Shown: piece after piece, positions 3,333 through 54,554 of the stretch | Numbering within the stretch: the first letter of the stretch is position 1 | Layout: every line of letters begins with the position of its first letter | Source: an uncultured bacterium | Lineage (GTDB): Bacteria > Margulisbacteria > WOR-1 > CAZGTC01 | DNA length: 64,000 nt | Assembly: GCA_964528395.1 (NCBI GenBank) | Contig: CAZGTC010000001.1 | Span: 30,046 to 94,045, forward strand | Direction of reading: 5' to 3' | Notes under the pieces: generated by a model | What the model was told of the DNA's origin: nothing | Database searches by the model: none | What the model saw: only the letters and a program-made list of their open reading frames with translations | Program-made: the position numbers and the translations under genes

Positions 3333-4406
3333 ATGTGGCCTAAATTAATATCGCTTCTTAATAAAATATTTAAGCAATTGCAGCAGGTTGAGCCATTGCC
3401 AAATGAATATGATGTTGTATGGGAAGGGCCGTATTTTATTCCCCAAAAAAAGAAATGGTCCCCTTCGCAATTTTTGTATTATAACGGAATTCTTTATTGT
3501 TCTCTTTTTATTGATTGGGGTACTTATCGTATGGATTGGAAGATAAAAGATAAAAAAATAAATTTTGAAACAGGATCTGGCAGCGGAGGAGATTATTATA
3601 ACAATGAATATCTCTGGGAAAGAGCTTTGACACAGATTTATCAAAGATTAAAAAGCGCTTTGAAGAATCCAGAAAGATATAATCGACACGTAAAACAATA
3701 TTTGCCATTTGCTTGTCAAGAGGGAAAAATTGAGCGCCGTTATACTTGGGATAGAAAAACAAAAAGTATTATTCCTTTTTCAAAAATTCAACACTTAGAA
3801 GATTTGCTAGCTGAAGCAGCTAAGTTGGAATATTTATCTCAAATGACACTTAGAAAATATTTAGAAACTGTTGCTATTACAAAAAATGCAGTGTTTAAAG
3901 GCTTAAAATCTTTATCTCTTGTTGAAAAATACAAGAAGCGAGCAGATACTAGGCATGGAGGCTTGCTTGATCTTCCTATGGATGATGCTGAGGCTTTTAA
4001 AAATTGGTATTGCTCAGGACGTTGGGCAGGATCTCATCCTTGGGAGATTGTTTATGGCCATCCCCATGGGATTATGCTAGCGCCACATCATGATGAAAAA
4101 GGTTGGAAATATATCTTATGGGTGGATTCCCTGGGCTGGTATGATTCGGCTGCTTATATGGCCATTGCTCTTGGAGAGAAGAAAATTTTCTTTGAGTTTC
4201 GCGACTCTCAAGAAATAATATCAGCTTTAAAAGGGGCAGATTTAGTGGAGGTTGGGCCCTTTTTTAGGATGGTTTCGTATGAGGAATTAAAGAGGGAGCG
4301 GCCGGAGGTAATAAAATATATTCAATGGAAACCCCTTTCACAATTTAAACTTATTACTCCAAATCAAAAAGAGCGCTTGCAAAGTATGCTTAAAGGAGTT
4401 TTATGA
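3333..4406 (+). CDS. hypothetical protein
   Basis: 357-aa ORF with ATG start; no family recognised by eye; 4-nt overlap with the next gene. Confidence 0.5.
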   Translation: MWPKLISLLNKIFKQLQQVEPLPNEYDVVWEGPYFIPQKKKWSPSQFLYYNGILYCSLFIDWGTYRMDWKIKDKKINFETGSGSGGDYYNNEYLWERALTQIYQRLKSALKNPERYNRHVKQYLPFACQEGKIERRYTWDRKTKSIIPFSKIQHLEDLLAEAAKLEYLSQMTLRKYLETVAITKNAVFKGLKSLSLVEKYKKRADTRHGGLLDLPMDDAEAFKNWYCSGRWAGSHPWEIVYGHPHGIMLAPHHDEKGWKYILWVDSLGWYDSAAYMAIALGEKKIFFEFRDSQEIISALKGADLVEVGPFFRMVSYEELKRERPEVIKYIQWKPLSQFKLITPNQKERLQSMLKGVL

Positions 4407-4963
4407 ATATTTTAGCTATATTAGGCAGTCCTCGTCGAGGCGGAAATTGTGAAAAGCTGCTGGATCAAGCTATTAAAAGTCAAAAGTCACAAGTTAAAAG
4501 TCACAAGTTAAAAGTCACAAGTTGCAAGAAAATCATTTTAAATGAATTAAATTTTCGGCCGTGCCAAGCGTGTGAAGAGATAAATCAAGACGGCACCTGC
4601 AAGATTCAAGATGATTTCAAGATCATTGAAAAAGCGGTTTTTGAGGCTGACATTATAATTTTGGCTTCACCTATTTATTTTGGTTCAATTTCTGCGCAAA
4701 CAAAAATGATGATTGACCGCTTCCAATGCCTTTGGCGAGCAAAAGAAAAGGGCCAAGTAGTCCCGCCTCTATATCATATAATAATGTTGCGGGATCCCGT
4801 ATGCGGGACAAGGGCCAAGGGCCAAAAAAAAGGATTCTTTATTTGTGTGCAGGCGGGAAATCGGACGGACTTTTTTGATAATGCCAGGGCAATCGTAAAA
4901 AACTTTTTTGCAACTATCGGCGCTTCTTACGAAAAAGAATTATTAGTCCCCAACCGAGAATAA
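4403..4963 (+). CDS. flavodoxin-like NAD(P)H-dependent FMN reductase / iron-sulfur flavoprotein family
   Basis: 186 aa; N-terminal ILGSPRRGGN and ILASPIYFGS flavodoxin-fold signatures; contains an in-frame tandem DNA repeat at ~4483-4530. Confidence 0.65.
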   Translation: MNILAILGSPRRGGNCEKLLDQAIKSQKSQVKSHKLKVTSCKKIILNELNFRPCQACEEINQDGTCKIQDDFKIIEKAVFEADIIILASPIYFGSISAQTKMMIDRFQCLWRAKEKGQVVPPLYHIIMLRDPVCGTRAKGQKKGFFICVQAGNRTDFFDNARAIVKNFFATIGASYEKELLVPNRE

Positions 4964-14546: not shown

Positions 14547-15224
14547 CTAAAAGTTATGGCAGGCTGGTTTTTTCATTGAGCTTGCCCTAGTTCTTAGATC
14601 GATATTGTATTCTGGAGTAAACCGTACTCTGAGGCTGTCCATAATAGGATTGGGAATCGCTGGAGTTTTTATAAAAGGGGCAATCGCAAGGTTTCTGGCC
14701 TCATTTTTTGGATCCCCAATATTTCTTGCTGTATAGTTCGATCTTAAAACAAAGTATTCATTTGGGCCAGCATAAACAAATTCATGGTTAATGTTTTGCT
14801 GCCACTTATTTTGTTCTACATTTTGTGCAAAGTCATATTGCATACGATAAAAAAACTGGTGATCTTGAATATTCACTTGCATTTGCGGTTCTATTTTATA
14901 AATATTACCAGTATGTTTTTGATTAAGAATATCTTTTGCCATGCCTTGCCTTTGGTTCTCATAGCCGCCGAGTATTAATAAACGAGCATGGGAAGTTTTT
15001 CTTTTGCTTTCTATGGCTAAATATCCCATTTCAATGTTGCTGGAGGTTAAAGTAAGGTTATTAACTGCAAATAGCTTTCCTTCCAATGGATTAAAACTTG
15101 TTTTAGAGGGGACTTTTTTAGGAGGAGTAAACGTTGGCTTCGCCTTTTTATTTTTTTCTTTAATTGGTTTACCTTTTACGGTTTTTAATCTAGGTTTTAA
15201 ATCAATTTTTGATAAATCCGTCAT
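14547..15224 (-). CDS. hypothetical protein (possible frameshifted gene extending to 14411)
   Basis: 225-aa ORF; a protein-like 52-codon open frame continues downstream in another frame. Confidence 0.4.
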   Translation of the reverse strand: MTDLSKIDLKPRLKTVKGKPIKEKNKKAKPTFTPPKKVPSKTSFNPLEGKLFAVNNLTLTSSNIEMGYLAIESKRKTSHARLLILGGYENQRQGMAKDILNQKHTGNIYKIEPQMQVNIQDHQFFYRMQYDFAQNVEQNKWQQNINHEFVYAGPNEYFVLRSNYTARNIGDPKNEARNLAIAPFIKTPAIPNPIMDSLRVRFTPEYNIDLRTRASSMKKPACHNF

Positions 15225-15557
15225 AAAAATTATTTCTTTTTATTCTATTTTGTATCCAACATATGAAACCTATAGAGCCCAGTCACCAGAATAAATTACC
15301 CTAGCCTCTACTTTTATTTTTTCTCCTTTCTCTTTGTTATCGTATCTCTCATAGCAAAATTTCACCTTTTCCAAGTTATTTTTCGATAATATGAGCGAAT
15401 TTTTGCAGATTAAAACAAACTAAATTGAGAGCCTTTTACTTCTATTTGCTATTATAAAAAATAAGGGGCTGATGAAAATGTCTGAAATTAAAGATTTAAT
15501 GATTATACTAAACTATAGTTGACTATAATTTAGTATTATGATAAAGTATGCTTTAAT

Positions 15558-16844
15558 ATGAATAAAGAAGCCCTAATTAATATTATCAATTTTTGGCAAA
15601 AAGCCGCGGATAAGGAACATCTTTTTCCCCGTTTGCTGCTTAATGCCATCAATTTAAAAGGCGATGAAATTATTGATTTAGTGGGGCCGCGCCGCAGCGG
15701 GAAATCTTCTTTGCTATATTTGATTATTAACCAGATAAAGTCTAAAGGAAATTATTTGTTTATTAATTTTGAAGACCCCTTTTTTATTGAGAATAATGGC
15801 CCGCAAGTGATAGAAGAATTAATTGATGTTTATAAGGAATATTATAATCCTAAGCTCAAATATTTATTTTTTGATGAGATGCAAAATATCAAAGACTGGG
15901 AAAAGGCCATACGGAAATTAGGCGACGGAACAAATTATAAGATCTTTATAACTGGTTCTTCGTCTAAATTATTGAGCCGGGAACTTTCTTCCCTTATTAC
16001 TGGACGGCACCTATCTTTTGAATTGTGGCCGCTTAAATTTAAGGAATATCTTTTATTTAAAGGATTATCTATAGATTCATATCGTGATTTTGCGCAGCAG
16101 AAGACTAAAATCTCCCGTTATTTTAATAAATATATGAAGCTGGGGGGATTTCCAAAAATTGTGCTTAAAGAAAACGAGGAATTGTTGAAACAATATTATT
16201 TGGATATCCTAGAAAAAGATATTATCAAGCATTATGACATTCGGCATAAGCAAATTATAGAAAAATTAGGGGTGTATCTTTTAAGCCAAGCGGGAAAGCT
16301 CTTATCGATTGCCTCTATTCAAAAAACATTTTGGATTTCTTTTGAGATTGCTTCAAATTATATTGATTATTTTAAAGAAGCTTTCCTCGTATTTGAGTTG
16401 CCGCAATTTTCTTATTCTTTAAAAACCCAACAAAAAGCGCAAAAAAAGATATTCGCAGTGGATACTGGGTTGGCCAATGCGGTTTCTTTTCGTTTCTCGG
16501 AAGATAAAGGAAGAATTTTTGAAAACACCGTTTTTATCCATTTAAAGCAAATGTATTCAGAGCTTTATTATTATAAAACAAAAAACAATTTGGAAGTTGA
16601 TTTTCTCTGTAAACAGAGTAAAAAAGTAGAACTTATCCAAGCATGTTTCGATCTTTATGATGAAAAAACAAAGGCTCGTGAAATAAGCGCGCTCGTAGAA
16701 GCAATGAAAGAATTAAAGCTTTCTTCCGGGATTATCCTAACTAATTCCACAAAAGATACGATTAAAATTAAAGGCGCCACGATTCATGTTTTTCCAGCTT
16801 TTGAATGGTTCCTTTTTAATTCTGAAAAACAATTAAAGGATTGA
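15558..16844 (+). CDS. AAA+ superfamily ATPase (COG1373/DUF4143 type)
   Basis: 428 aa; Walker A GPRRSGKSSL, Walker B-like LFFDEMQ; C-terminal DUF4143-like region. Confidence 0.75.
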   Translation: MNKEALINIINFWQKAADKEHLFPRLLLNAINLKGDEIIDLVGPRRSGKSSLLYLIINQIKSKGNYLFINFEDPFFIENNGPQVIEELIDVYKEYYNPKLKYLFFDEMQNIKDWEKAIRKLGDGTNYKIFITGSSSKLLSRELSSLITGRHLSFELWPLKFKEYLLFKGLSIDSYRDFAQQKTKISRYFNKYMKLGGFPKIVLKENEELLKQYYLDILEKDIIKHYDIRHKQIIEKLGVYLLSQAGKLLSIASIQKTFWISFEIASNYIDYFKEAFLVFELPQFSYSLKTQQKAQKKIFAVDTGLANAVSFRFSEDKGRIFENTVFIHLKQMYSELYYYKTKNNLEVDFLCKQSKKVELIQACFDLYDEKTKAREISALVEAMKELKLSSGIILTNSTKDTIKIKGATIHVFPAFEWFLFNSEKQLKD

Positions 16845-16885
16845 ATTTATGAATGGAATTAAAGATCTAAGCAGCCCTCAAGCAC

Positions 16886-16914
16886 TTGACATCAAATTTA
16901 TATTATGGTAATAA
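16886..16914 (+). promoter_or_regulatory. putative sigma70 promoter with overlapping palindrome
   Basis: TTGACA (16886-16891), 17-nt spacer, TAATAA; overlaps inverted repeat ttatggta...accataa and a repeated attatggtaataa. Confidence 0.4.
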
Positions 16915-16939
16915 TATACCATAATTATGGTAATAAATT

Positions 16940-17485
16940 ATGATATCTTTTAAATCTAAAATAGCGGTTAAAATATTGAATTACTTCTTCTTAAATCCGC
17001 AAGAAGAACGTTATATTAACGAACTGTCAAAAATTTTAAATGTAGACGTGAAAAATCTTCATTCTAAGCTTAAGGAGCTGGAAAAAGAAGGCCTTTTAAA
17101 AAGCGAATTTCGCGGAAACCAAAGATATTTTTATCTTAATAAAGATTTTCCATTATTGGAACACTACCGCCAGATTTTCTTAAAAACATCGGGAATTGAA
17201 TATAGGTTAAAGAATATAATTAAAAAGATAAAAGGAATGAAAAATGCTTATCTCTTTGGTTCCTATGCACAAAATACGATGGAAACCGAAAGTGATATAG
17301 ACTTGTTGGCAATTGGAGACCATTCTGTTTTAGAATTACAAAAAAAAATAGCTAAACTTCAGCATGAAATTAGTCGGGAGATAAATGTTGTTAATATGAG
17401 CGAAAAAGAGTATTTAGAAAAAAAGAAAAAGAAAGATCAGTTTGTTTTAAATATTTTTAAAGATAAAGTAATTAATTTATTATGA
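16940..17485 (+). CDS. HTH plus nucleotidyltransferase-domain protein
   Basis: 181 aa; NTase motif LFGSYAQNTMETESDIDLLAI; ATGA overlap with downstream HEPN gene. Confidence 0.7.
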   Translation: MISFKSKIAVKILNYFFLNPQEERYINELSKILNVDVKNLHSKLKELEKEGLLKSEFRGNQRYFYLNKDFPLLEHYRQIFLKTSGIEYRLKNIIKKIKGMKNAYLFGSYAQNTMETESDIDLLAIGDHSVLELQKKIAKLQHEISREINVVNMSEKEYLEKKKKKDQFVLNIFKDKVINLL

Positions 17486-17889
17486 TAAAGTTTGATAAAG
17501 ATTATTTTCAAAAAATAGAATTTTCACAAAAGCAGCTAGAACAGTTTTTAGATTCAGCTAAAAGAGATTTAATTATTGCTAAGCAATCTGATGTTCCGGA
17601 GGTAGTTTTTAAGTTTGCTTATGATGCTCTCTTGAAATTAGGCATATATGTGATTGCTAAACGCGGCTACAAAGTTAAGGCCCGTAGCGGACATCATGTA
17701 AAAATACTAGAAAAATTAGCTCAAATATTAAAGAATGACGACGTTTTTGTTTTAGGAAATAAAATGAGGCAGGATCGTAACTTAGGACTTTATTCTGGCG
17801 GAAGTCCTGCAACAGAAAAAGAATCTGATGAGTATTTAACATTTGTTGAAAAAGTTTTTTCTGATATTTTGGACAAAGGAGTTTTATGA
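17482..17889 (+). CDS. HEPN-domain protein
   Basis: 135 aa, helical; classic NTase-HEPN gene pairing with translational coupling. Confidence 0.6.
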   Translation: MIKFDKDYFQKIEFSQKQLEQFLDSAKRDLIIAKQSDVPEVVFKFAYDALLKLGIYVIAKRGYKVKARSGHHVKILEKLAQILKNDDVFVLGNKMRQDRNLGLYSGGSPATEKESDEYLTFVEKVFSDILDKGVL

Positions 17890-18800
17890 GTTTAATAAAA
17901 GACTTAATTATTATTGGGGGAGGGCCGGCGGGAATCACGGCGGCAATCTATGCAGCCCGCAAGCGCTTGAATTTTTGCCTGCTGACGCGGGAAGTGGGGG
18001 GGCAGACTGCTTGGACCAGCAATGTAGAAAATTACACCGGCTACCAAATTATTTCCGGGCCGGATCTGGTGAAAAAATTCTACGACCAGCTAAAAACTTA
18101 TAAAATTGATCTGCGAGAAGGGCAAGAGGTTAAGTCCGTTGGAAAGAATGCTGGTATTTTTACAGTAAAAACTGCAAAAGACGAGGAGCTTCAAACTAAG
18201 ACGATTGTACTGGCTTCGGGCAAATATCCTCGGCGCTTGGGAGTTCCAGGAGAAGCCAAATTTAGCAATAAAGGGGTAGCCATCTGCGCAACTTGCGATG
18301 GCCCGATGTTTGCGGATAAAAATGTGGCGATTATCGGCGGCGGCAATTCCGCCCTGGATGCAGCTTTACAAATGATAAAGATTGCTGCAAAAGTCTATTT
18401 GATTACAGTAAATGATGATTTGAAGGGCGATCCAGTAATGATAGAAAAAGTAAAAACTGCAGAAAATATGGAAATTTTAACCAAAACGAAAACATTGGAA
18501 ATCTTAGGAGATAAGTTTGTTAAAGCCATAAAAATTGAAGAAAAAGGCGGAATTAGAGACTTAGTGGTTGAGGGAATTTTTGTGGAAATTGGCCTTGTGC
18601 CTAATGCGAAATTTATTGATTTTTTGGAAAAAAATGATCAGGGTGAAATTATCGTAAATTGTTTTATGGAAACTTCGGAACCTGGGATTTTTGCAGCTGG
18701 AGATGTTACACAAGTACCGGATAAGCAGATTATTATTGCAGCTGGGGACGGAGCCAAGGCGTGTTTGAGAGCCTTTCGTTACTTGTCAACGCATAGATAA
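17886..18800 (+). CDS. trxB: thioredoxin-disulfide reductase-like FAD/NAD(P) oxidoreductase
   Basis: 304 aa; GGGPAG FAD motif, redox CATCDG, second GGGNSA NAD(P) motif. Confidence 0.75.
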   Translation: MSLIKDLIIIGGGPAGITAAIYAARKRLNFCLLTREVGGQTAWTSNVENYTGYQIISGPDLVKKFYDQLKTYKIDLREGQEVKSVGKNAGIFTVKTAKDEELQTKTIVLASGKYPRRLGVPGEAKFSNKGVAICATCDGPMFADKNVAIIGGGNSALDAALQMIKIAAKVYLITVNDDLKGDPVMIEKVKTAENMEILTKTKTLEILGDKFVKAIKIEEKGGIRDLVVEGIFVEIGLVPNAKFIDFLEKNDQGEIIVNCFMETSEPGIFAAGDVTQVPDKQIIIAAGDGAKACLRAFRYLSTHR

Positions 18801-18837
18801 AGTAATAAGAAATAAGTAGTAAGGAATAAGAATAAAA

Positions 18838-31163: not shown

Positions 31164-32473
31164 GTAACCGGTCGGGCGAGAAGGTCATAAGGCAAGGCAG
31201 CTAGAACCTTGGCTTTTATGATTTCTCCTGGGTTTATTTTTTTGCCAGTTATTATAACCGAACCATCGATTTCTGGAGCATCCATATATGACCGGCCCAC
31301 GCTGCCTTTAGGAGTGACTTTATCTATTAAAACTTCGATTATTTTCCCGATCATTTTCTTGTTTTTCTCTTCTGAAACCGATTTTTGTAAACTCATTAAG
31401 GTTCTTAATCTTTTTCTCTTTAATGGAGCTGGAACCTGTCCCCTCATCTTATTTGCCAGCGTGCCAGCTTCTCGAGAATATTCAAAAACACCCAATCTTT
31501 CAAACTTCGTCTCTTTAACAAAATTAAAAAGTTCTTCAAAATCTTTTTGCGTTTCCCCTGGGAACCCGACAATTAAAGAAGTCCGAAGAACTATGCCTGG
31601 TATTTCCCTCCTAATTTTTTGAATGAGCCGGATGAGCTTATTTTTGGGCGTTTTACGGCCCATTTTCGATAAAATGTTATCACATATATGCTGGATTGGC
31701 AAGTCAAGATACTTAACGATTTTCTTCTCTTTTGCCATGATTTTTATCAATTCCGGGGTAATATGTTTGGGGTGGGTGTACATGATGCGGATCCATTTTA
31801 TGGCTGGGATTTGGCAAGTTTTTCGCAGTAATTCAACAAATTTTGGATGCTGGGTCGTGTCTTGGGCAACAAAAATGATTTCTTTTACCCCTTGTTTAGC
31901 TAATTGTTTTACTTCAGCGATGACATCGACTAATGGCCGGCTATGATAATTCCCGCGGATTGAGGGAATTAAACAATAAGAACAGCGGTTATTGCACCCA
32001 TCCGCGATTTTGACATAGGCAGTGTGGGGTGGGGTAAGTTTTAAACGCGGAATATTATGAGAAAATAGTATGGCTCCGGACTTAGCTTGGGATTTAGTAA
32101 TTGGGATTTTATTTGGATTTTGGATTTTGACATTGGGATTTTTTAGGAGGTCTAATATCTGTTCTAATTGATTACACCCTAGCCAAACATCAATTTCTTT
32201 TAGAGGAGGTTTTTTTTCACGCTTGGGCAGGCAGCCGATAACTGCCAAAATTTTACAACAGCCGGTTTTTTTGTATTGGCTGTATTTTTTTATGGTTTGA
32301 ATGGATTCTGCAACCGAAGATTTTAAAAATGCGCAAGTATTGATGAGAATAATTTCTGCGAGCTTAGGATTTGTGGTTAAACTAAAACCATTGGTCAATA
32401 ATATTCCCAAAACTGCTTCAGAATCAGTTAGGTTTTTTGGGCAACCCAGGCTTAAAAGATAGATTAAGTTCAC
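31160..32473 (-). CDS. rimO: ribosomal protein S12 methylthiotransferase
   Basis: 437 aa; SLGCPKNLTDSE, radical-SAM CNNRCSYC, C-terminal TRAM; GTG start overlapping doc stop (GTGA); in-frame repeat-derived segment at ~32095-32160. Confidence 0.8.
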   Translation of the reverse strand: MNLIYLLSLGCPKNLTDSEAVLGILLTNGFSLTTNPKLAEIILINTCAFLKSSVAESIQTIKKYSQYKKTGCCKILAVIGCLPKREKKPPLKEIDVWLGCNQLEQILDLLKNPNVKIQNPNKIPITKSQAKSGAILFSHNIPRLKLTPPHTAYVKIADGCNNRCSYCLIPSIRGNYHSRPLVDVIAEVKQLAKQGVKEIIFVAQDTTQHPKFVELLRKTCQIPAIKWIRIMYTHPKHITPELIKIMAKEKKIVKYLDLPIQHICDNILSKMGRKTPKNKLIRLIQKIRREIPGIVLRTSLIVGFPGETQKDFEELFNFVKETKFERLGVFEYSREAGTLANKMRGQVPAPLKRKRLRTLMSLQKSVSEEKNKKMIGKIIEVLIDKVTPKGSVGRSYMDAPEIDGSVIITGKKINPGEIIKAKVLAALPYDLLARPVT

Positions 32474-32862
32474 GCAAGTATAATTCTTTCAATTATCCAT
32501 TGTTTTATTTTTTGGAAGGCTAGTTTGTTTTGGGCGATATTAATTACAAAATCTACAATTTCTCTGTCTTTAAATTCCCAAATATACCAGTTTTCTACTA
32601 AAAATAATTTTGTCAATATTGCTGCGGTTCTTTTATTACCATCGACGAAAGGATGTAGCCTAATAATACCTTCTAATAGAGCAGCTGCTTTATCAAATAA
32701 ATCCGGAAAGAATTCTATCCCATTGGATAGGCCTGTAAATGGTTTATTGAGGGCAGCATCTAGAGATTCTACGCTTATTAATCCTTTTAATCCTCCAAAT
32801 TCTTCGATGATTTTATCGTGTAAATCAATTACTTTTTCTAGCTTCAGAAATTCCTTTTTCAT
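32470..32862 (-). CDS. doc: Doc-family (Fic/Doc) toxin
   Basis: 130 aa; HPFVDGNKRTA matches the Doc motif HxFx(D/N)GNKR. Confidence 0.75.
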   Translation of the reverse strand: MKKEFLKLEKVIDLHDKIIEEFGGLKGLISVESLDAALNKPFTGLSNGIEFFPDLFDKAAALLEGIIRLHPFVDGNKRTAAILTKLFLVENWYIWEFKDREIVDFVINIAQNKLAFQKIKQWIIERIILA

Positions 32863-33011
32863 TTATTAGCAAGTTCTTTCCAAGCTCCAGCGTGTTTTTT
32901 TATGATAGTTTTATACTCTTTTGAGTTTTTTTTGAAGACTTTTTCTGTTGCTATGATAAGCCTTGATAATTGTTTTTTCCCTTCTTTAGTTAAATTTTCT
33001 TTTTTAGTCAT
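32859..33011 (-). CDS. small ORF, putative Doc-partner antitoxin
   Basis: 50 aa (MTKKENLTKEGKKQLSRLIIATEKVFKK...); ATGA overlap with doc start; RBS-like GAGGTG 5 nt upstream; not in ORF track. Confidence 0.35.
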   Translation of the reverse strand: MTKKENLTKEGKKQLSRLIIATEKVFKKNSKEYKTIIKKHAGAWKELANK

Positions 33012-33942: not shown

Positions 33943-34695
33943 ATGCAGCATAGGCATACTAATTGGAATAAAGTGGCAAAATGGTACGATGGCTTAGTGG
34001 GAGAAAAAGGTTCGAACTTTCACCAGTCAATAATTTTCCCGCGGGTTTTGGATATTCTGAAAAATAAAAAAGCCAAAAAAGTCCTGGATATTGCCTGTGG
34101 CCAAGGGGCTTTTTGCCGCCAATTATTTAAGGAGGGGTTTTCTGCAACGGGCGTAGATGCTGCGGAAAACCTCATTCGCTTAGCTCGGCAAAGAACTCCT
34201 AAAGCAGACTATTTTGTGGCAGCTGCGGATAAAATGATAAATTTAAAATCCCAATCTTTTGATGCTGCGGTTTGCATCTTGGCGATCCAAAATATGGATC
34301 CGATTGAGCCGGTTTTTCAAGAGATAAAGAGAGTTTTAAAACCCGGAGGATCTTTTCTTCTGGTCATGAATCACCCCTGCTTCCGCATTCCCCGGCAGAG
34401 CGGGTGGGGGATTGACGAAAAAAGGAAGCTGCAGTACCGCCGCATCGACAGTTACCTTTCTCCCCAGAAAATTCCCATAAGGATGCATCCCGGGGCGGAT
34501 CCAAAAACCATGACGATCAGCTTTCACCGGCCGCTAGAAAATTATTTTAAGGCTTTGGCTGGGGCGGGGTTTTGCGTGGAGAATTTGGAAGAATGGAGTT
34601 CGCACCGCCAGAGTTTGGCTGGCAAAACCAAAAAAATGGAAGATCGCGCTCGAGATGAAATCCCGCTGTTTTTAATGATTAGTGCAAGACTATAA
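33943..34695 (+). CDS. class I SAM-dependent methyltransferase
   Basis: Motif I VLDIACGQGAF; start set at the first ATG (the track start at 33925 is GTG). Confidence 0.75.
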   Translation: MQHRHTNWNKVAKWYDGLVGEKGSNFHQSIIFPRVLDILKNKKAKKVLDIACGQGAFCRQLFKEGFSATGVDAAENLIRLARQRTPKADYFVAAADKMINLKSQSFDAAVCILAIQNMDPIEPVFQEIKRVLKPGGSFLLVMNHPCFRIPRQSGWGIDEKRKLQYRRIDSYLSPQKIPIRMHPGADPKTMTISFHRPLENYFKALAGAGFCVENLEEWSSHRQSLAGKTKKMEDRARDEIPLFLMISARL

Positions 34696-34781
34696 TGAAG
34701 TAATAAGCAATAAGAAATAAGTAATAAGAAAAAGATTATTTTACATCGATTTTTGGGCTGACGAAGAGAAGAATAAATATA

Positions 34782-36068
34782 TTGGAAGATCAAAAACAAA
34801 ACCATATTTTTTTTGTTATTGATGAGCTGTTGTTTGAAAATAATGTAAATAATGGGCCAATAGATTTATTAATTTATTTAACTAATATACTAAACAAGAT
34901 AAATATTAAATCTGTTAGTAATAAAATATTGGAGATAGGCAGCATCAATTATGTAATTAAAGATGAAGAGATATTTTTTTATAATATTAAAGGAATTAAA
35001 AGCTCTCTTCCTTCTTATCGTATTGAAGAACCGGTCTGGGGAAAAATTGATAAAATACCTGAAAAAGAATTTGTATTACAATATAAAATTGCTAAGAATT
35101 TATCAGCGGATTATTATGTTTCCGCTGATAAACATTTTAAATCGCTTCTTAAAGAACAAAAAAGAGGCCAACATAGGAATACACAGATAATCCCGCCTTT
35201 GAAAGCGCTAAGATTAGTGCGGGCTTTGCTTCATGCTAACGATGTTAGGTTTGGTGCAGCTCAATTTGCTTCTGTTAAGGAGTCTGTTATGAGCAGGGCG
35301 CCCTTCCATTTTTCCAAAAATCTCAACCTTATTTTTGATAAGAATAGATCAACTTATAAAAAATTACCGGTAGAAATTGGATGGGGCATTAGAAATATTT
35401 TATCGTTTCTTATTGAGACAAGGGATAAGATTGAAATCTTATTTTATGAGAAACAGAATGAATATAATGCTATAGTTGATAGCGTTTATTATTTGAACTA
35501 TTTTTTTATTTTAATGTGTTCGCTTTTTGATAATCTAGCTTGGTTTCTTGTTAAATATTATGATATCAAATATGATGATCCCAAAAGAGTAAAGTTAAAT
35601 GAATATAGGATTAAAAATAGCGTTCTTTGTAAATTTTTTTCAGAAACTAATGAGCATAACGATCTCCATGAATTTATTCAAGAAAAGCACAATTTTATTG
35701 AAATATTTTTCCCTTTGAGAAATTTAATCGCTCATCGACCTAGAATTCCTTCTCTGCTTACTAGTGTTGATAAGAGCAGGTATATTACCTATGATATAGG
35801 CTTGGAAAATGGCTTATTTGACTACTTAAAATCAAAAGACGGAAAAAAATATAATGTAAAATATTGGTATGATAAAGATGAAGACGAGAATAAAATATCT
35901 ATATCTCCTTTGAAATTTATATATGCTGTATTTGATGACTTGAAGATTTTTTTAGATTTACTATTCCAAAACATTTATAAATACAAGAGCGAGGTAGACT
36001 CCCCATTAATATTTAAAGCAAAGTCGGATCCTGTTTGCGATAGTTTGGCAAAATTAGAATCAGTATAA
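34782..36068 (+). CDS. hypothetical protein, possible Abi-like HEPN abortive-infection protein
   Basis: 428 aa; markedly AT-rich; FPLRNLIAHRP contains an RNxxAH (Rx4H) HEPN-type motif; next to a tRNA and flanked by direct repeats. Confidence 0.4.
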   Translation: MEDQKQNHIFFVIDELLFENNVNNGPIDLLIYLTNILNKINIKSVSNKILEIGSINYVIKDEEIFFYNIKGIKSSLPSYRIEEPVWGKIDKIPEKEFVLQYKIAKNLSADYYVSADKHFKSLLKEQKRGQHRNTQIIPPLKALRLVRALLHANDVRFGAAQFASVKESVMSRAPFHFSKNLNLIFDKNRSTYKKLPVEIGWGIRNILSFLIETRDKIEILFYEKQNEYNAIVDSVYYLNYFFILMCSLFDNLAWFLVKYYDIKYDDPKRVKLNEYRIKNSVLCKFFSETNEHNDLHEFIQEKHNFIEIFFPLRNLIAHRPRIPSLLTSVDKSRYITYDIGLENGLFDYLKSKDGKKYNVKYWYDKDEDENKISISPLKFIYAVFDDLKIFLDLLFQNIYKYKSEVDSPLIFKAKSDPVCDSLAKLESV

Positions 36069-36168
36069 ATACTAAAAAACTCCCAGATTTTTTAACTGTA
36101 TTAGAACAAAAAGACAACATGTATTAGAACATTTGTCTTATGCTAAAAAATAATGGAAGTAAAAATAA

Positions 36169-36513
36169 TTACTTCTGTGAATTTATCAAGCCGGAGAACA
36201 TTTTTGATAATTCTTCTACTATGCTATTGAATTTTTCTATTGTTTCTTCTCCAGGATTTGAATGCAATAAAATAAGATCAAAACAAGTTGCCGTTTCATT
36301 TAAAGAAGCCCTTGCTGTAATATAGAAATGCTTTTTATCGTTTTTTGTAAATCTGCCATAACCTTCAGAAAAATTTAAGATAATCGAGATGACTGCCCTT
36401 AATATTTGGTCTTTTAATGGTCGGGGAACATTGGTATTAAGGCAATTGTTTACTAAAGAATATAACTCTTTTGCCTTTTTGTAGATTTCTTTATCTTTAA
36501 AATCAGTAAACAA
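36169..36513 (-). CDS. four-helix-bundle protein (TIGR02436 / 23S rRNA IVS protein family)
   Basis: 114 aa; characteristic ILNFSEGYGRF ... ITARASLNET pattern. Confidence 0.8.
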   Translation of the reverse strand: MFTDFKDKEIYKKAKELYSLVNNCLNTNVPRPLKDQILRAVISIILNFSEGYGRFTKNDKKHFYITARASLNETATCFDLILLHSNPGEETIEKFNSIVEELSKMFSGLINSQK

Positions 36514-36644
36514 AGCTTTTTTCCTTCTTTTTTCTTATTTCTTGTTACTTATTTCTTAAATATTGCGAAAGACAAGGGGGACTTATTAAGAAACAAGTAA
36601 TAAGCAATAAGTAGCAAGAAAAATATTGCTTTCGCAATATTTTA

Positions 36645-36716
36645 TGGGCCTTGTAGGATTCGAACCTACAACCAATCGGTTATGAGCCGAGTGCTCTACC
36701 CTTGAGCTAAAGGCCC
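36645..36716 (-). tRNA. tRNA with CAT anticodon, elongator type; probably tRNA-Ile2 (lysidine)
   Basis: GGGCCTTTAGCTCAAGGGTAGAGCACTCGGCTCATAACCGATTGGTTGTAGGTTCGAATCCTACAAGGCCCA folds as a cloverleaf; G1:C72 paired so not initiator; tilS is 2 kb away. Confidence 0.8.
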
Positions 36717-38230: not shown

Positions 38231-38390
38231 GATTTTCCCTCCCTGTGAAGAATTATTCAGCGTTTAAAGTGTAACAGAAAGGCTTTTGCATTGCAATATT
38301 TTTTTGGGTATGATAGTATCTGTTTTCGAGGAAAATAGAGCTATTTTTCCCCCAATTCCTTGTTTTTCAAGCGTTTGCGGGGAAAGTTAT

Positions 38391-38464
38391 GGCTGGGTAG
38401 CTCAGCTGGTTAGAGCAAACGGCTCATACCCGTTGTGTCGGCAGTTCGAATCTGCCCCCAGCCA
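38391..38464 (+). tRNA. tRNA-Met (CAT), elongator type
   Basis: GGCTGGGTAGCTCAGCTGGTTAGAGCAAACGGCTCATACCCGTTGTGTCGGCAGTTCGAATCTGCCCCCAGCCA; canonical arms; G1:C72 paired. Confidence 0.8.
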
Positions 38465-38477
38465 AAAATGAAAAATT

Positions 38478-48143: not shown

Positions 48144-51100
48144 TTAATTTTCTCCTCTAGCCTCGAGTAATCGGTTTATCTCGGCGGATATGTTTAATAT
48201 TGTCTTGATTTCCGATTTTATTTGAGAAGGGATTTTTTCTTCTTTATCATAGGAATAAAGAATGTTTTTAATGGTTAATTCTACATAAAGTTGAGTATCG
48301 ATAACATATGCTGTTAATTTAGGATTTGCTGCAATGTTTCTCACGGCTTCTATTTGAGAATATAAAGCAGAAAGTAAATTTAATATTTTTTCCAGAGTTA
48401 AATTTTGCGGATCTGCCAGATAGGTTAGAGCTTTATTAAGAGATATTTCTGGGTTATCGTTGATTAAATCATTGGTTGTAGTTGGCGGCAGGGGTGGTGG
48501 AGCAAGGGGTTGTGGAGCTGGTTTTGATGCTTCTTCTGCTTGTTTTCTTTCTAATTCTTCTAGTTTTTGTTCTACGCTTGGTAAATTTTTTGATACACCC
48601 CTGTGTGTTTTAAGTATTTTCTGTAGATATTCTAGGGCAATTCGGCAGTTTTTTACCTCATTTGTTTGCGGCAATGTTTCAAGCTGCGTTAAAAAATCTA
48701 TTCGTTTCATCCAAAACGCTGCAGCGGAGAATATAAGGTCGTGCGGAAGATTGGATTCTGCTTCTATGGCTCTCAAGTGTCCGCTCAAAGTTGCCATAGG
48801 GCTGTTTATTAAATCATTTGCTTGTAGCGCTTGAATTCTAATTTTAATTTCTTCAATAGAAGTCGAAGGCAACCTCAAAGATGCTGCTGGAGGTGCTGGA
48901 GTAGGTGCTGGAGGTGGGGTTTTTTCTTGACCCTTGACCCTTGCTACTTGTTTCTCTTGTTTTGCGGATGGAGTTTGTGGTGAGGTGAAGGGTTTTTCTT
49001 TAGGAGGCAGAAAATTGGCGGGTTCTACAAGAGCTGGCGCTGGTGCAGGGGGGGGAGGTGTGTGTAACAAGGAATCAGCAGCAGCATTGATACCTTCTTG
49101 AGAATAGGCTCGACCTGTTTCTCTTGATGAACCAATGAGTTCTTGTAATTTGGCATTAATTCTAGATAAATTATCCATAACGTTTTGTTTATTTTCTTGT
49201 AAATCTGCTTGCTCGGGAGCAATAGAGATAGCTGCTGTTTTGCGATAAATTTTTTCATAAATAGCAGCATATTGATTAGCTGCGTTAATATCGTTGGGAT
49301 TATTGGAATCAAGTGGAGAAATTATAGGCAATAGAAGATTAACTAGCTCTTCTAGTATTTTTATTGAAAGAATATCTTTTCTTTTTTCTCTTGATTCAAA
49401 GAAAGATATGAAGGCTTGGCATATATGGAAAGGAGTTTGGGCTTTTGTTAAATTAATAGTTAATAAAGAAATATCTCTTTTATCTGTTTTTGTTCTTATT
49501 TTATCATCAAAAATGCCAATAACTTCTTGAAGATTTTTAGGGAAATTTGCTCCCAAATGTTCAGTTTTCTTTTCTAATAAAGTATAAATATTTATAAAAA
49601 TTTCTAATGTTTCAAAAGGAGCCGAAGATATTTTTTGGATGGCGATTTTGTATAAGGAAATCGCAAGATTTACTTTTAAATTTTCCGCCAAATCCTCACG
49701 AATAATCCTCTCAATTTCTTCTGGTGCAGCCGCGGCCATGGCCTGCAAATGATGTTTTTCTAAAGTCGCGAGTTTGATTTCACTTCTTTGTCTTAATCCT
49801 TCATATTGATTTTTTATTGATTCTGGAGCGCGGTCAAATTTCCCCCATACAAAAACTGCGGCTTCGGTTATTTGTCCTGCGGCGCGGGCTTGTTCATGGG
49901 GGAAGGCGCGGTCAAAAGCCTTCGAATACTCCCCGACAATAGCCTCGATCCAGGCGGGGTTATAGGATAAGAGCTGGTAAGAAATATTTTGGAGGTCTTC
50001 AAGAGTTTTTGCTAAATCAATGGAATGAGGATTGCTAAATATGTTTTGATTGAATTGGGCAGAAAAATTTTGTAATTGCTCTCTTTCTTTTTTTCTTGTT
50101 TCTTCAACAAAAGCGTCTAATTCCTCTATATTTTGTGGAATCTGTAGATTGCTTTCCTCTTGATTTGATTGTTTTAAATCTAATAGTCTTTTAACCCCAG
50201 TATTACTTTGATTGGCATGTTGCCGGGCATATTGCAAGGTGCCTTTTTTTGGGCTGATAAGTCCGGGAAAAGCTGCTTCCAGCGCTTGTACGTCTTCTCT
50301 TGAAGGGACATATTGAGAGGCACATAAAAAATCAAGCAAGGCAGGAGTTCCCAAGCGAAAGATCCCTTCGCAATCGAGGAACATCAATTGTAAAGCGCGG
50401 GTTTTTAATGCTATCGCAGTTTCTCCTTGTAAATCTAATGCTGCCAATATGAGGCCGAACAATTCGATGTTTTTGCATTTAATAATAGCTAAAGTGGCAT
50501 TATAAATTAAGTCTTTTTGCGCAGGACTTAGGTTTTCTTCTTGCGCCAGGATAGAAACCGCACGAGGGAATTCAATGGCAACATCGGTTACGTCAATGCC
50601 GTTTTTTAGGGGCTGTAAATTATTTTTTATTTCTTTTTCATTTTTTCCATCTGCCTCAAGCCCTTCAATGATCTGCAACTGGCGCAGGGCTATATATAGA
50701 GGTTTTTTAGCTAAGTCTTGATAAACTATTTTTACTATGGCATTTAAAGAGTTTAATTTTTGGTCGTTAAATAGGTTGAATAGTAAGTGGTGTAATCCTG
50801 CGTAAGACTGGTCAACATCCTCTTCTATTTTAGTTTCTTTGGCATTAGCTAAGCGCAATAAAAAAAATAGTTCAAAAAGCTCGTTCATCTGCTGAAAACA
50901 TGTATTTTGGTCTAAAGGATTTAGCGAGTTTTGGATTTTAAAAGCCTCTCTTAAGGCAATATGTTTTAGCGTGATTACCTGGTTGTCTGCAGTATCCATG
51001 ATTATTTCTTTATGTTCAAAAATTTGCGTAACATATAAGCAGTTCATGGCAGTTTTGTAGAAGAGCAATGAAATATCCCTTAATTCTTTTTTGGATGGGA

Positions 51101-51518
51101 CATCATATAAAGTTGAGATGCCATGGAAAATTTCCATAAAAGCCCGACAGCTGACATAAAAAACGGCATTACTAATATCTTTTGGGATTGTTTCTCCAGA
51201 GGCTGTTTCATAAGCCTGAATAAAAGCTTCAATTTTTCTTTCTGAATTCTCTTCATTCAGAGCTGCATTATTTATGTCTTCGATAATTGTCAAAAAGTCT
51301 TTGGCTTCTTGAATAGATGCAATGCGAGTAAACCGATCTTTCTGCTCCAGAACTTTTTGATGAACAGTGTCTGGGGATATTCCAAAGATATTCTTTGGAG
51401 GAAGAAGCCCCCTCAAAAATTCTTTTTGCTTGCTGGTTGCTTGTATAGGAAGCCTAAGAGCAGGAGAATTGGCTCCAGGGTTTGGTTGAAATCTTCTTAT
51501 TTCTATTCCATTGGTCAT
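48144..51518 (-). CDS. giant hypothetical protein (operon member)
   Basis: 1124 aa; mostly helical; Pro-rich linkers (HTPPPPAPAPA, KTPPPAPTPAPP, APPPLPP); no recognisable domain. Confidence 0.5.
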   Translation of the reverse strand: MTNGIEIRRFQPNPGANSPALRLPIQATSKQKEFLRGLLPPKNIFGISPDTVHQKVLEQKDRFTRIASIQEAKDFLTIIEDINNAALNEENSERKIEAFIQAYETASGETIPKDISNAVFYVSCRAFMEIFHGISTLYDVPSKKELRDISLLFYKTAMNCLYVTQIFEHKEIIMDTADNQVITLKHIALREAFKIQNSLNPLDQNTCFQQMNELFELFFLLRLANAKETKIEEDVDQSYAGLHHLLFNLFNDQKLNSLNAIVKIVYQDLAKKPLYIALRQLQIIEGLEADGKNEKEIKNNLQPLKNGIDVTDVAIEFPRAVSILAQEENLSPAQKDLIYNATLAIIKCKNIELFGLILAALDLQGETAIALKTRALQLMFLDCEGIFRLGTPALLDFLCASQYVPSREDVQALEAAFPGLISPKKGTLQYARQHANQSNTGVKRLLDLKQSNQEESNLQIPQNIEELDAFVEETRKKEREQLQNFSAQFNQNIFSNPHSIDLAKTLEDLQNISYQLLSYNPAWIEAIVGEYSKAFDRAFPHEQARAAGQITEAAVFVWGKFDRAPESIKNQYEGLRQRSEIKLATLEKHHLQAMAAAAPEEIERIIREDLAENLKVNLAISLYKIAIQKISSAPFETLEIFINIYTLLEKKTEHLGANFPKNLQEVIGIFDDKIRTKTDKRDISLLTINLTKAQTPFHICQAFISFFESREKRKDILSIKILEELVNLLLPIISPLDSNNPNDINAANQYAAIYEKIYRKTAAISIAPEQADLQENKQNVMDNLSRINAKLQELIGSSRETGRAYSQEGINAAADSLLHTPPPPAPAPALVEPANFLPPKEKPFTSPQTPSAKQEKQVARVKGQEKTPPPAPTPAPPAASLRLPSTSIEEIKIRIQALQANDLINSPMATLSGHLRAIEAESNLPHDLIFSAAAFWMKRIDFLTQLETLPQTNEVKNCRIALEYLQKILKTHRGVSKNLPSVEQKLEELERKQAEEASKPAPQPLAPPPLPPTTTNDLINDNPEISLNKALTYLADPQNLTLEKILNLLSALYSQIEAVRNIAANPKLTAYVIDTQLYVELTIKNILYSYDKEEKIPSQIKSEIKTILNISAEINRLLEARGEN

Positions 51519-51539
51519 AAAATTGACTCTCGCTTTTTA

Positions 51540-52796
51540 TTATTTCTTTTTGTTTCTTAACCAGCCAATAGCTTCTCTTGAGCTATATATAATTAGAGAT
51601 AGAATTAGAGATGCGGCTATTGTGATAAGAATGTTTTCACCCACGATATCTAAGTAATTGTCAGACCACAGATGTTCTGTTAGTTCTGGAGTCATACTTC
51701 CAGCATCAAAATAACTCAAAACTGATCCAGCAATTCCTCCACCAATTATTCCACCCCCTGCAAATTTCAATGCTGTCCGTATTTTGCTTGATTGTTTTTC
51801 TACACGGTCTTTTACTTTTTTTGTTGGGGGCTTTGCTGGTTTATTAGCTGGAGGAGGAGGGGTTTCTGGTGCTGAAGGAGGAGTTGGTACTGGTGTTGGA
51901 GCAGGAGATGTTGCTGATGCTGGAGAAGGAGTTACTGGTGGGGTTGGTGGCTGTTCTGAAACAGATGATGGTTTTTCTTGAGAGATAGTTTCTCTTCCGG
52001 TTCTTGGTTTTTCTCGATCAGAAATAAGTGTCTTTTTTTGTCCTTCAGTTGTTTGGCGCGATAAATCTGATAAATTTATAGGTTTGCGACCAGGAGCTGA
52101 TTCCGTCTCTGAATCTAACTCCTCAAAAATAAGATCAAGGTCATCTAACCCTTTTATTTCATTGCTAGAAGCAGGGGCAGGTGGGGTATTTATTACTCTT
52201 GGTTTTGGGGTAGACCTTCTTTTTTGTTTTTCAATTAGTATTAAATCTATCCCTCTATCGGTTGGTGCTTCTGGAGGAAGGGGTGGGAGGGAGACTGGGG
52301 GGGTGGGGTCGGCTTTATTAGGGTCTGGGGCGGCGGTTACTTCTGGCATTGAAACCCAAGGAGTTCCAACAGCATGTTGTCCGTTTGCAGTTTTGGAAGG
52401 ATCTAGTCTCTCAACTAATGCTTCTATTTCATTCCCTGTTTCTCCTTTTCCTCTTGGGACACCGGGTAATTTTGGACTAGTAACACCAGGAAGACTGGCT
52501 GGTTGTCCAATTTTTTCATCTTGAGTATCATTAGGTTTTTCAGCCATTTTAACTATTTGTATTTCATTTAAAGTTAAATCTTTTACTAATTTTCTTGTTG
52601 GGATTTCTTGCGAGCCGGTGGCAAGGGCGAAATTTTGATTAGAAATAGACAAGAAAGATTGCACAGCTGTTTTCCAACTGTCTAGCGCAATCCTAACTTG
52701 TGCTTCCCTTCCCTGAAAACACCGAAAGGTTTCGTGTGTTCTTCTCCAATTTGTTGCCGGGACATGATTTGCTATTCTTCCAAAAAAAGATGCCAT
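51540..52796 (-). CDS. proline-rich hypothetical protein with C-terminal hydrophobic anchor (first gene of operon)
   Basis: 418 aa; long low-complexity Pro/Thr/Ser region; C-terminus has two hydrophobic segments; RBS AGGAGG. Confidence 0.5.
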   Translation of the reverse strand: MASFFGRIANHVPATNWRRTHETFRCFQGREAQVRIALDSWKTAVQSFLSISNQNFALATGSQEIPTRKLVKDLTLNEIQIVKMAEKPNDTQDEKIGQPASLPGVTSPKLPGVPRGKGETGNEIEALVERLDPSKTANGQHAVGTPWVSMPEVTAAPDPNKADPTPPVSLPPLPPEAPTDRGIDLILIEKQKRRSTPKPRVINTPPAPASSNEIKGLDDLDLIFEELDSETESAPGRKPINLSDLSRQTTEGQKKTLISDREKPRTGRETISQEKPSSVSEQPPTPPVTPSPASATSPAPTPVPTPPSAPETPPPPANKPAKPPTKKVKDRVEKQSSKIRTALKFAGGGIIGGGIAGSVLSYFDAGSMTPELTEHLWSDNYLDIVGENILITIAASLILSLIIYSSREAIGWLRNKKK

Positions 52797-53774: not shown

Positions 53775-54554
53775 ATGGAAAAAATATGGATTAAGCGTCT
53801 TGAGGAAGATTTTTCTTTTTATGAAAAAGAAATAACCGGTAAATATTTTGACCTTATAAAAAATAAAAAAAGGATGCCCGTTGAAAGGATTTTAGCATCC
53901 GCAGAAAAAAATAAAAGCTATGACATATACCATTCTACAACAATTGAAGGGTATCAAATAACAGAAAAGGAAGTCGAAAATGTCTTATTGGGTAAAATAC
54001 CCCTCAAAGGCAAAGAAAGTGATAGCTTAAGGAATAAGCTGGCGATTTTGGGGCATTCTTTAGCTTTTGATTTTGTTATAAAAATGGTAAAAAAGCACTT
54101 TGATAAAATTAGAATAAGCGAAGAATTAATTTTGGATATTTATTTTCAGCTTTTTAAGCCATCCGCAGATGCTGAAATACTGGATAAATTTTCTTTAACC
54201 GGATATCGTAAAGTCCCGGTTTATATACGCGGAAGCCGTTTTGTCCCCCCAGCCTATGAAAAACTGGCGGATTTAATGAAGTCTTTTATACAACAAAGCA
54301 ATCTTATTAAGCAGCCTATTATAAAAGCCATTCTTTGCCATTACTTTTTGGTTACAATCCATCCTTTTATTGATGGCAATGGCAGATCTGCGAGGCTTTT
54401 GATGAATTGTATTTTAGCTGGAAATGGATATAAATGGATAACTATCAGTGCAAATGAGAGGGAAAAATATTTTGAAAGCTTAAAAATTGGCCAATTAGAA
54501 AACAATATATTGCCTTTTGCAGATTTTATTCTTTCTTTTTATGCCCCGCGCTAA
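53775..54554 (+). CDS. Fic-family protein (class II, with N-terminal inhibitory motif)
   Basis: 259 aa; Fic motif HPFIDGNGRSAR; upstream STTIEG matches the (S/T)xxxE(G/N) inhibitory helix. Confidence 0.8.
   Translation: MEKIWIKRLEEDFSFYEKEITGKYFDLIKNKKRMPVERILASAEKNKSYDIYHSTTIEGYQITEKEVENVLLGKIPLKGKESDSLRNKLAILGHSLAFDFVIKMVKKHFDKIRISEELILDIYFQLFKPSADAEILDKFSLTGYRKVPVYIRGSRFVPPAYEKLADLMKSFIQQSNLIKQPIIKAILCHYFLVTIHPFIDGNGRSARLLMNCILAGNGYKWITISANEREKYFESLKIGQLENNILPFADFILSFYAPR

Follow-up and report, generated by a model that had tools for sequence, protein, structure and literature searches.

An AT-rich segment in a WOR-1 genome read as a probable composite of a tRNA-linked four-helix-bundle cassette and a predicted HEPN ribonuclease gene

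Intervening sequences (IVSs) of bacterial rRNA that carry an open reading frame (ORF) for a small four-helix-bundle (4HB) protein, of the family 23S_rRNA_IVP (PF05635/TIGR02436), have been described as AT-rich selfish elements of unexplained mobility, with terminal inverted repeats that pair into an RNase III stem (PMC4990558). A gene of this family occurs in the 64,000-nt stretch of DNA analysed here (contig CAZGTC010000001.1 of assembly GCA_964528395.1, from an uncultured bacterium of the lineage WOR-1; hereafter the window), where it lies in an AT-rich segment at positions 34697-36640, directly downstream of a tRNA gene and facing a gene for a 428-aa protein with a predicted HEPN domain (ORF-A). 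The reading preferred for this segment, at a probability of roughly 0.6, is that it is a composite of two unrelated and independently mobile accessory modules lying side by side: a cassette of leader and 4HB gene, and ORF-A.

The cassette resembles the 23S rRNA IVSs of Coxiella, Leptospira and others, and the rRNA insertions of the candidate phyla radiation, in its PF05635/TIGR02436 protein, its size (~0.4-0.6 kb in IVSs) and an AT content above that of the host (PMC4990558; 10.1101/2024.02.27.582315). A stem made of long imperfect inverted repeats, which in IVSs is cleaved by RNase III, and a probable place in a stable-RNA transcription unit are further likenesses. However, an IVS sits inside a 23S rRNA helix with its repeats flanking the ORF, whereas the cassette follows a tRNA and has both arms of its hairpin upstream of the ORF, and two of its homologues are bracketed by 16-nt direct repeats of a tRNA 3′ end, a feature not described for IVSs. 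Islands mobilized by tRNA-targeting tyrosine integrases offer a second comparison, as they share insertion at a tRNA 3′ end, duplication of its last ~16 nt (in the homologues L274 and L280, below) and deviating composition; unlike them, the cassette has no integrase, measures ~0.6 kb with one small gene, is found at no fewer than four tRNA species and, in its window copy, has no detectable tRNA repeat. The Avd proteins of diversity-generating retroelements belong to the same Pfam family and fold class of small basic four-helix bundles, but neither a reverse transcriptase nor template/variable repeats were found near the cassette.

A sequence-only reading of this DNA had described the segment as horizontally acquired defence cargo, namely a strongly AT-rich island with an Abi-like HEPN gene and a TIGR02436-type gene, bounded by direct repeats and adjoining a tRNA. 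The compositional part of this description held up. The GC content of 34697-36640 is 0.283 against a 64-kb mean of 0.397 (s.d. 0.04 over 1944-nt windows), making it the lowest-GC window of 1944 nt in the 64 kb, with 0.08% of windows equally low, and the GC content at third codon positions (GC3) is 0.25-0.27 in ORF-A and the 4HB gene compared with a gene mean of 0.38. As that reading had also stated, no integrase is present: neither the two segment genes nor the scanned neighbouring ORFs contain an integrase or recombinase domain. An Rfam scan found no rRNA in the window. The two genes are convergent, and the segment is laid out as follows.

34782-36068, plus strand: ORF-A, gene for the 428-aa protein; contains FPLRNLIAHRP; residues ~8-150 tentatively PIN-like (alpha/beta), residues ~197-399 of predicted HEPN-type four-helix fold
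36069-36168, no strand: spacer between the convergent stop codons, with a 12-nt direct repeat TGTATTAGAACA at 36097-36108 and 36120-36131
36169-36513, minus strand: gene for the 114-aa 4HB protein (23S_rRNA_IVP / TIGR02436), with a TTG start after GAAGGA; profile scores above curated cutoffs
36645-36716, minus strand: tRNA with CAT anticodon (ARAGORN; Rfam 72.3 bits), directly upstream of the 4HB cassette and co-oriented with it

The 114-aa protein scores 71.2 bits against TIGR02436 (cutoff 24) and 67 bits against PF05635 (cutoff 33.8), which confirms its earlier assignment. Homologues 89% and 85% identical to it are encoded in other Saganbacteria assemblies and one 67% identical in a Margulisiibacteriota assembly, and in each case the gene and its leader stand after a tRNA.

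Window: 4HB cassette after tRNA(CAT), same orientation
L274 (4HB protein 89% identical): cassette after tRNA-Val(GAC), same orientation
L277 (85% identical): cassette after tRNA-Ile(GAT), same orientation
L280 (67% identical): cassette after tRNA-Ser(GCT), same orientation

The wider gene contexts of L274, L277 and L280 are unrelated to the window and to one another. At the nucleotide level, the window, L274 and L277 are homologous from the 3′ end of the tRNA onwards, through a leader of ~130-170 nt and the ORF, and the similarity fades within a few tens of nucleotides past the 4HB stop codon. The adjacency of tRNA and segment noted earlier is therefore meaningful, since homologous cassettes directly follow three other tRNAs. 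No link of the 23S_rRNA_IVP / TIGR02436 family to tRNA genes was found in the literature, and a scan of IMG/VR with the 4HB protein returned no relatives.

The leader has a common order of parts, consisting of a small AT-rich hairpin, an antisense array of heptad repeats, a short spacer with a further copy of one small-hairpin arm, and a sense array that ends at the ribosome-binding site. In the window these parts, together with a second partial copy of the leader next to the upstream methyltransferase gene, are positioned as follows.

36621-36642, minus strand: small hairpin rich in A and T, which folds with a GAAA loop, has a U-run after it and begins 2 nt past the tRNA 3′ end
36525-36620, minus strand: long imperfect hairpin of the cassette leader, with arms of 35 nt that are 83% complementary
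36558-36571, minus strand: loop segment of the long hairpin, a repeat of one small-hairpin arm that forms a perfect 14-nt inverted repeat with 36629-36642
34695-34758, minus strand: putative relic of a second cassette leader, colinear with the 5′ half of the intact leader

At the RNA level the long hairpin is formed by pairing of the antisense heptad array (36620-36586) with the sense array (36559-36525), which stops 12 nt short of the 4HB start codon. The small hairpin has equivalents at the same position in L274, L277 and L280, and the long hairpin is likewise found in all three, with 23 consensus pairs, 5 of which show compensatory changes; the same structure is retained in the GC-richer leader of L280, where the repeats read CCTTACT / AAGGAGT. 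The interleaved inverted repeat of 14-15 nt recurs in L277 (perfect) and L280 (93%). Fold z-scores range from -3.6 to -9.5 across the cassettes, with -5.3 for the window's leader (36514-36646), and an Rfam search of this leader gave no family at threshold, with sub-threshold matches to generic miRNA-precursor hairpins only. The loop segment at 36558-36571 could allow alternative pairing or a pseudoknot, and the small hairpin may be a weak terminator or a processing signal.

This anatomy changes the meaning of the repeats at the segment's edges, which had previously been taken as attachment-like (att-like) bounds of an island. The repeats themselves are present where they had been placed: AGTAATAAGCAATAAG occurs exactly at 34699-34714 and 36596-36611, within a direct repeat that reaches 48 nt at 79% identity (34695-34742 versus 36585-36632), with an inverted copy of the heptad repeat at 36525-36563 and a related array at 18800-18837. 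In the window AATAAGNAATAAG, allowing at most 1 mismatch, has 12 matches against 1.6 expected, and the chance expectation for period-7 AAG arrays is ~0.03 per window. The right-hand repeats (36525-36559 and 36586-36620) are the two arms of the intact cassette's leader hairpin. Their interpretation as att-like bounds was abandoned, given that they are parts of a leader that recurs after three tRNAs without a HEPN gene and that a solo array stands at 18.8 kb. On the left, the minus strand of 34695-34758 shows in succession ‘GCCCA’, a degenerate small hairpin, a T-run and an antisense array (CTTATTN)n, the last appearing on the plus strand at 34698-34733 as (AATAAGN)5 directly past the methyltransferase stop codon. 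Its alignment to the intact leader scores 47, where the best of 1000 shuffles reached 32, and the region forms a 39-nt inverted repeat with 36525-36563. The left copy is best read, from its colinearity with the intact leader, as the relic of a second leader, in which case the ‘flanking direct repeats’ would be one intact cassette leader and one relic.

Evidence for insertion comes from the sequence past the cassettes. Past the cassette, both L274 and L280 repeat 16 nt of the tRNA 3′ end without a mismatch, covering the stretch between T-loop and acceptor end; the two copies in L274 are 590 bp apart, and the scores of these repeats were reached by 0 of 2000 shuffles. As the homologues follow different tRNAs and two are bracketed by this duplication, the cassettes have probably inserted at the T-loop/acceptor end of tRNA genes. 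At 10364-10377 of L274 the perfect repeat is preceded by a degenerate version of the anticodon arm of tRNA-Val (86% over 14 nt), and the post-cassette duplication there consequently looks like a decayed tRNA 3′ half. L277 has no significant copy of its tRNA 3′ end by local alignment against shuffles, nor has the spacer between the convergent genes of the window (p = 0.66).

These repeats also bear on the possibility that a single islet without an integrase entered at the tRNA 3′ end and brought both genes with it, its attL/attR-like bounds being the repeats at 34.7 and 36.6 kb. In a variant, the tRNA received two cassettes in tandem, of which the newer carried the HEPN gene as its distal cargo. 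Elements that target tRNAs are well known to insert serially where the tRNA site has been regenerated. An islet of this kind would account for the extreme AT content common to both genes and for the left edge (34695-34758), which gives a ~65-nt imperfect direct repeat of the right edge beginning with the last 5 nt of the tRNA. However, the repeated sequence is cassette leader and not tRNA, the 5-nt tRNA match is not significant (p = 0.99), an integrase is absent, and the homologous cassettes are bounded by tRNA repeats at ~590 bp, which leaves no room for a second gene. Moreover, the left relic is closer to the leader of L277, with whose antisense array it is identical over 25/25 nt, than to the window's own, which suggests a separate cassette rather than a duplication made by insertion. 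A single islet is accordingly considered unlikely.

The heptad arrays could alternatively be a native expression signal, such as an A-rich 5′ leader or translation enhancer, in which case the linkage of tRNA and 4HB gene would be one of co-expression only and the AT-rich genes would be fast-evolving residents. One of the arrays lies outside the segment.

18800-18837, plus strand: solo sense heptad array that lies, in DNA of normal GC content, exactly past the stop codon of a thioredoxin-reductase-like gene and ahead of the ATG of a ZIP transporter gene

Sense arrays stand directly upstream of start codons, oriented with the gene, in three cases, one of which is this ZIP transporter of normal GC content, and they contain a Shine-Dalgarno-like AAGGA. 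Against a general signal, only four arrays are found among ~60 genes, and in L274 and L277 the arrays are confined to the 4HB cassette; the tRNA-end duplications of L274 and L280 indicate insertion, and related genomes have highly similar 4HB genes at different loci. This explanation is thus thought improbable. The array at 18800-18837 has an 18-nt exact match to the sense array of L274. A period-7 array of another type, (AAGTCAC/AAGTTAA)n, is located at 4477-4528 (plus strand), inside or at the start of an ORF at 4403-4963. A search for the heptad pattern in viral contigs gave uninformative low-complexity matches only.

The genomic surroundings were compared with the nearest available genomes, all from candidate division WOR-1, whose NadA proteins are 63-65% identical to that of the window. 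Synteny is kept to the right of NadA and stops exactly at the segment. The three nearest relatives have neither a tRNA nor an islet upstream of NadA, with the qualification that they are distant and that synteny is broken there. A second tRNA(CAT) at 38390-38465 (plus strand), directly upstream of a small ORF and tilS, is kept in this arrangement in three WOR-1 relatives, and the minus-strand tRNA(CAT) beside the cassette is not. A metagenome scan with the methyltransferase found proteins of at most 57% identity, without synteny and with no close relative among them, and exact look-ups of the 428-aa protein and of two start variants of the methyltransferase had no match.

Several observations weigh against the composite of two mobile modules. 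No duplicate of the tRNA 3′ end occurs within the window, whether sought with at most 3 mismatches in 20 nt or by local alignment, where no match was significant, so that a tRNA-derived att repeat is missing, and the presumed insertion at the window's own tRNA(CAT) is deduced by homology only. The sample of tRNA-linked cassettes is four, and no recombinase is associated with them. A more distant copy of the 4HB gene, in a Candidatus Scalindua locus, is not beside a tRNA. The composite accounts only in part for the solo arrays at 18.8 kb and 34.7 kb, and the nearest genomes in which an empty site could be sought are only ~64% identical in NadA and lose synteny at the segment.

Under the proposed composite, the first module (~36150-36644, minus strand) would be a cassette of ~0.5-0.6 kb that starts at the tRNA 3′ end and comprises the small hairpin, the long hairpin and a promoterless 4HB gene of the 23S-rRNA-intervening-sequence / Avd family. 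Its 4HB gene would be expressed by read-through from the tRNA promoter, the long hairpin may act as an element of RNase III-type processing or of translation control, as in rRNA intervening sequences, and the recombinase for insertion was probably supplied in trans. A hidden Markov model (HMM) of the 4HB clade, run over 2.86 Mb of unrelated fetched loci, recovered one further clear family member, the decayed gene in the Scalindua locus. This gene (L018, 3823-4276) stands directly after NadA and is flanked by inverted (TTCGGAG)n arrays of 31-32 nt, in a layout like that of an intervening sequence, outside any rRNA or tRNA. As arrays of another sequence type flank the decayed gene, heptad-array inverted repeats accompany the 4HB family, whereas placement behind a tRNA 3′ end belongs to the Saganbacteria/Margulisbacteria clade. 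A broader proposal, offered tentatively and at somewhat less than even odds, is that 23S_rRNA_IVP/TIGR02436 genes ride on autonomous or trans-mobilized cassettes of ~0.6 kb, each a heptad hairpin leader with one ORF, which home to many tRNA 3′ ends and rRNA helices, with the 4HB protein serving the spread or maintenance of the element in stable-RNA units.

The second module (~34760-36090, plus strand) would consist of the single gene ORF-A. Its RNxxAH motif, singled out in the sequence-only reading, is R313-N-L-I-A-H318 (Rx4H), and R313 and H318 proved invariant, with L244 as the only other invariant position, in an alignment of 39 sequences. The family is rare, with four close members among 5.8 billion proteins and 36 distant representatives among 1.84 billion, the latter ~30% identical over residues ~200-325; a profile search of a large protein collection with the 39-sequence alignment found only 5 proteins. 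The residue after R313 is N, D, H or E, the motif consensus is FYPxR[DN]xxxHR, and D250, in an FDNLA motif of helix 2, is kept in at least 90% of the sequences. Searches of plasmids and phages by tblastn with the 428-aa protein, and of IMG/VR with the close-family alignment, detected no relatives.

Comparison with curated families was less informative. ORF-A matches no Pfam, NCBIfam or PADLOC model at threshold, and its sole HEPN profile match, to PF18730 (HEPN_Cthe2314), scores 19.8 bits, below the cutoff of 27.1. Weak matches to this profile recur in 5 of the 39 family members over the region from helix 2 to the motif, the best at 22.3 bits against 27.1, and PF18730 is the sole curated profile to match the family recurrently, always below its gathering threshold; a family consensus gave no gain over single-sequence matches to Pfam. 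The Cthe_2314 family is listed without detected operon or architecture associations (Table 1, PMC3710099). The earlier suggestion of an HEPN/Abi profile match is borne out only to the extent of this sub-threshold HEPN match, as membership of Abi_2 (AbiD/AbiF) finds no backing either in Pfam at E ≤1 or in the PADLOC Abi models. A sequence profile search of the PDB with ORF-A gave 0 matches and Foldseek against the PDB none that was significant, while hhalign to the window's HepT protein aligned the two Rx4H motifs at a probability of only 0.1%. Another ORF of 428 aa in the window (15558-16844) was considered as a relative of ORF-A and proved unrelated, being an AAA_14/DUF4143 ATPase.

An AlphaFold2 (AF2) model built on the 39-sequence alignment (pLDDT 73.4, pTM 0.74; an earlier model from 4 sequences, at pLDDT 46.7, was discarded) has a C-terminal domain with pLDDT of 80-95. 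Its predicted topology is H1 197-223, H2 228-259, an insert at 260-302, H3 303-318 ending at H318, and H4 376-399, with a beta insert of ~55 residues between the motif and helix 4. As this topology and the Asp in helix 2 agree with the published definition of HEPN domains (PMC3710099), the 428-aa protein is probably an HEPN-fold protein; the N-terminal PIN-like domain of the model is tentative. No minimal nucleotidyltransferase gene adjoins ORF-A, as it would in an HEPN-MNT pair. A promoter reading of TTTTTGG(G/T)C upstream of the HEPN gene was dropped, as the candidate -10 element overlaps the start codon in the window.

Among described proteins, ORF-A shares an Rx4H motif with a polar residue after the R, and a stand-alone gene, with the single-gene HEPN defence RNases AbiD/AbiF, PrrC/RloC, ApeA and DARNA/PD-T7-3, of which DARNA and ApeA are the nearest functional analogues. 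Neighbourhoods with restriction-modification systems, as proposed for many HEPN clades (PMC3710099), and predicted RNA cleavage after activation (10.64898/2026.02.22.705581) are further points in common. ORF-A matches no Pfam or PADLOC profile of AbiD/AbiF, PrrC/RloC, ApeA or DARNA/PD-T7-3, and it differs from these proteins in having its HEPN domain C-terminal to the PIN-like domain and in the ~55-residue beta insert. The order of an N-terminal PIN-type domain followed by HEPN is also that of eukaryotic Swt1, with the PIN assignment in ORF-A tentative; the HEPN domain of Swt1 is however largely inactive and forms a dyad, and no sequence relationship to ORF-A is detectable.

ORF-A relatives lie in neighbourhoods of a defence type. 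P0004 is located between two type III-like restriction-modification systems and a large serine recombinase. P0036 has as neighbours a serine recombinase, a PLD/SNF2 helicase and an MmeI-type methylase, and the beginning of P0002 overlaps the end of a gene for a TaqI_C-domain methyltransferase. Both P0003 and P0004 are AT-rich and have GC-rich flanks. Relatives on haloarchaeal megaplasmids are divergent from an AbiEi gene, and two distant relatives match the phage protein family phrog_33637, whose function is not known. Many HEPN clades have been proposed to form a second line of defence beside restriction-modification systems (PMC3710099), and the association of ORF-A relatives with such systems fits that proposal. 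The product of ORF-A, with predicted N-terminal PIN-like and C-terminal HEPN RNase (Rx4H) domains, would then be a stand-alone endoribonuclease of abortive-infection or toxin type that stays dormant until infection, or until a neighbouring defence system fails, and then cuts cellular RNA.

Further details were noted at individual loci of this family. On the haloarchaeal plasmids NZ_CP082287.1 and NZ_CP040331.1 (L271 and L272) a 479-aa member is divergent from the gene of an AbiEi-family antitoxin, and the annotation shows no AbiEii toxin next to it. ORF-A homologues of two unrelated GC-rich hosts have a common upstream element, TTTTTGGTCGCAAAT (L001 9925-9945 and L006 325-345), placed past a host-specific GC-rich hairpin; this element may mark the edge of a mobile unit that carries the homologue.

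The distribution of the two genes separates them. No 4HB gene is found at the HEPN-family loci with readable flanks, ORF-A is absent from the other three cassettes, and the sole other co-occurrence is on L088, a contig of 1.8 kb that was obtained from another sample and agrees with the window at 99-100% identity. The idea of horizontally acquired defence cargo is thus upheld as to deviant composition, accessory nature and relatives near restriction-modification and recombinase genes, and not as to a single two-gene unit. A closer relationship, in which the HEPN and 4HB proteins form a toxin-antitoxin or sensor-effector pair and the 4HB protein binds RNA or neutralizes the RNase, would draw on the adjacency and similar composition of the genes, on the pair's presence on L088, on the binding of nucleic acids and partner enzymes by the 4HB relatives Avd, and on 23S_rRNA_IVP genes noted beside nucleases in cas loci (PMC3936711). 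However, the genes are convergent and form no operon, the pair is absent at every other locus examined of either family, and L088 probably derives from the same population as the window, so that a functional pair appears highly doubtful. The composite of independent modules, by comparison, has each gene occurring elsewhere without the other.

Other AT-rich genes in the window include a classical MNT-HEPN toxin-antitoxin module at 2459-3291 (plus strand), composed of a minimal nucleotidyltransferase (Polbeta/NTP_transf_2) and a HepT-like HEPN RNase. A second AT-rich stretch, at 14600-17900 (GC ~0.31), contains the AAA_14/DUF4143 ATPase and, at 16940-17485, a helix-turn-helix (HTH)-nucleotidyltransferase; the latter is overlapped by a 135-aa ORF (17482-17889) with no Pfam match, which may be its HEPN-type partner. 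AT-rich genes of the Fic/Doc family are found at 32470-33011 (minus strand) and 53775-54554 (plus strand), the first preceded by a small ORF at 32859-33011 with a 4-nt overlap into its start, an arrangement typical of Phd/Doc-like pairs. On the minus strand, 42739-52796 is occupied by four large ORFs in succession (1164, 637, 1124 and 418 aa; GC3 0.22-0.28), none with a Pfam match at E ≤1e-4.

For the interpretation of genomic islands, the locus illustrates that low-complexity repeats at the edges of an island can be parts within one small cassette and not att sites. The 428-aa protein defines a rare HEPN family outside the Pfam, NCBIfam and PADLOC v2 catalogues, and its repeated position beside restriction-modification systems makes the family a reasonable candidate for a single-gene abortive-infection RNase; as a candidate HEPN defence family it is ordinary in kind. 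The tRNA-linked 4HB cassette, which was not found described in the literature, is the more interesting part of the finding. The 4HB ‘IVS protein’ family is among the most widespread small hypothetical families, and near-identical genes with a conserved hairpin leader after four tRNAs, two of them bracketed by copies of the tRNA end, provide a testable handle on how the element moves and what its protein does. The cassette ties the rRNA intervening sequences to a wider habit of residing in stable-RNA genes.

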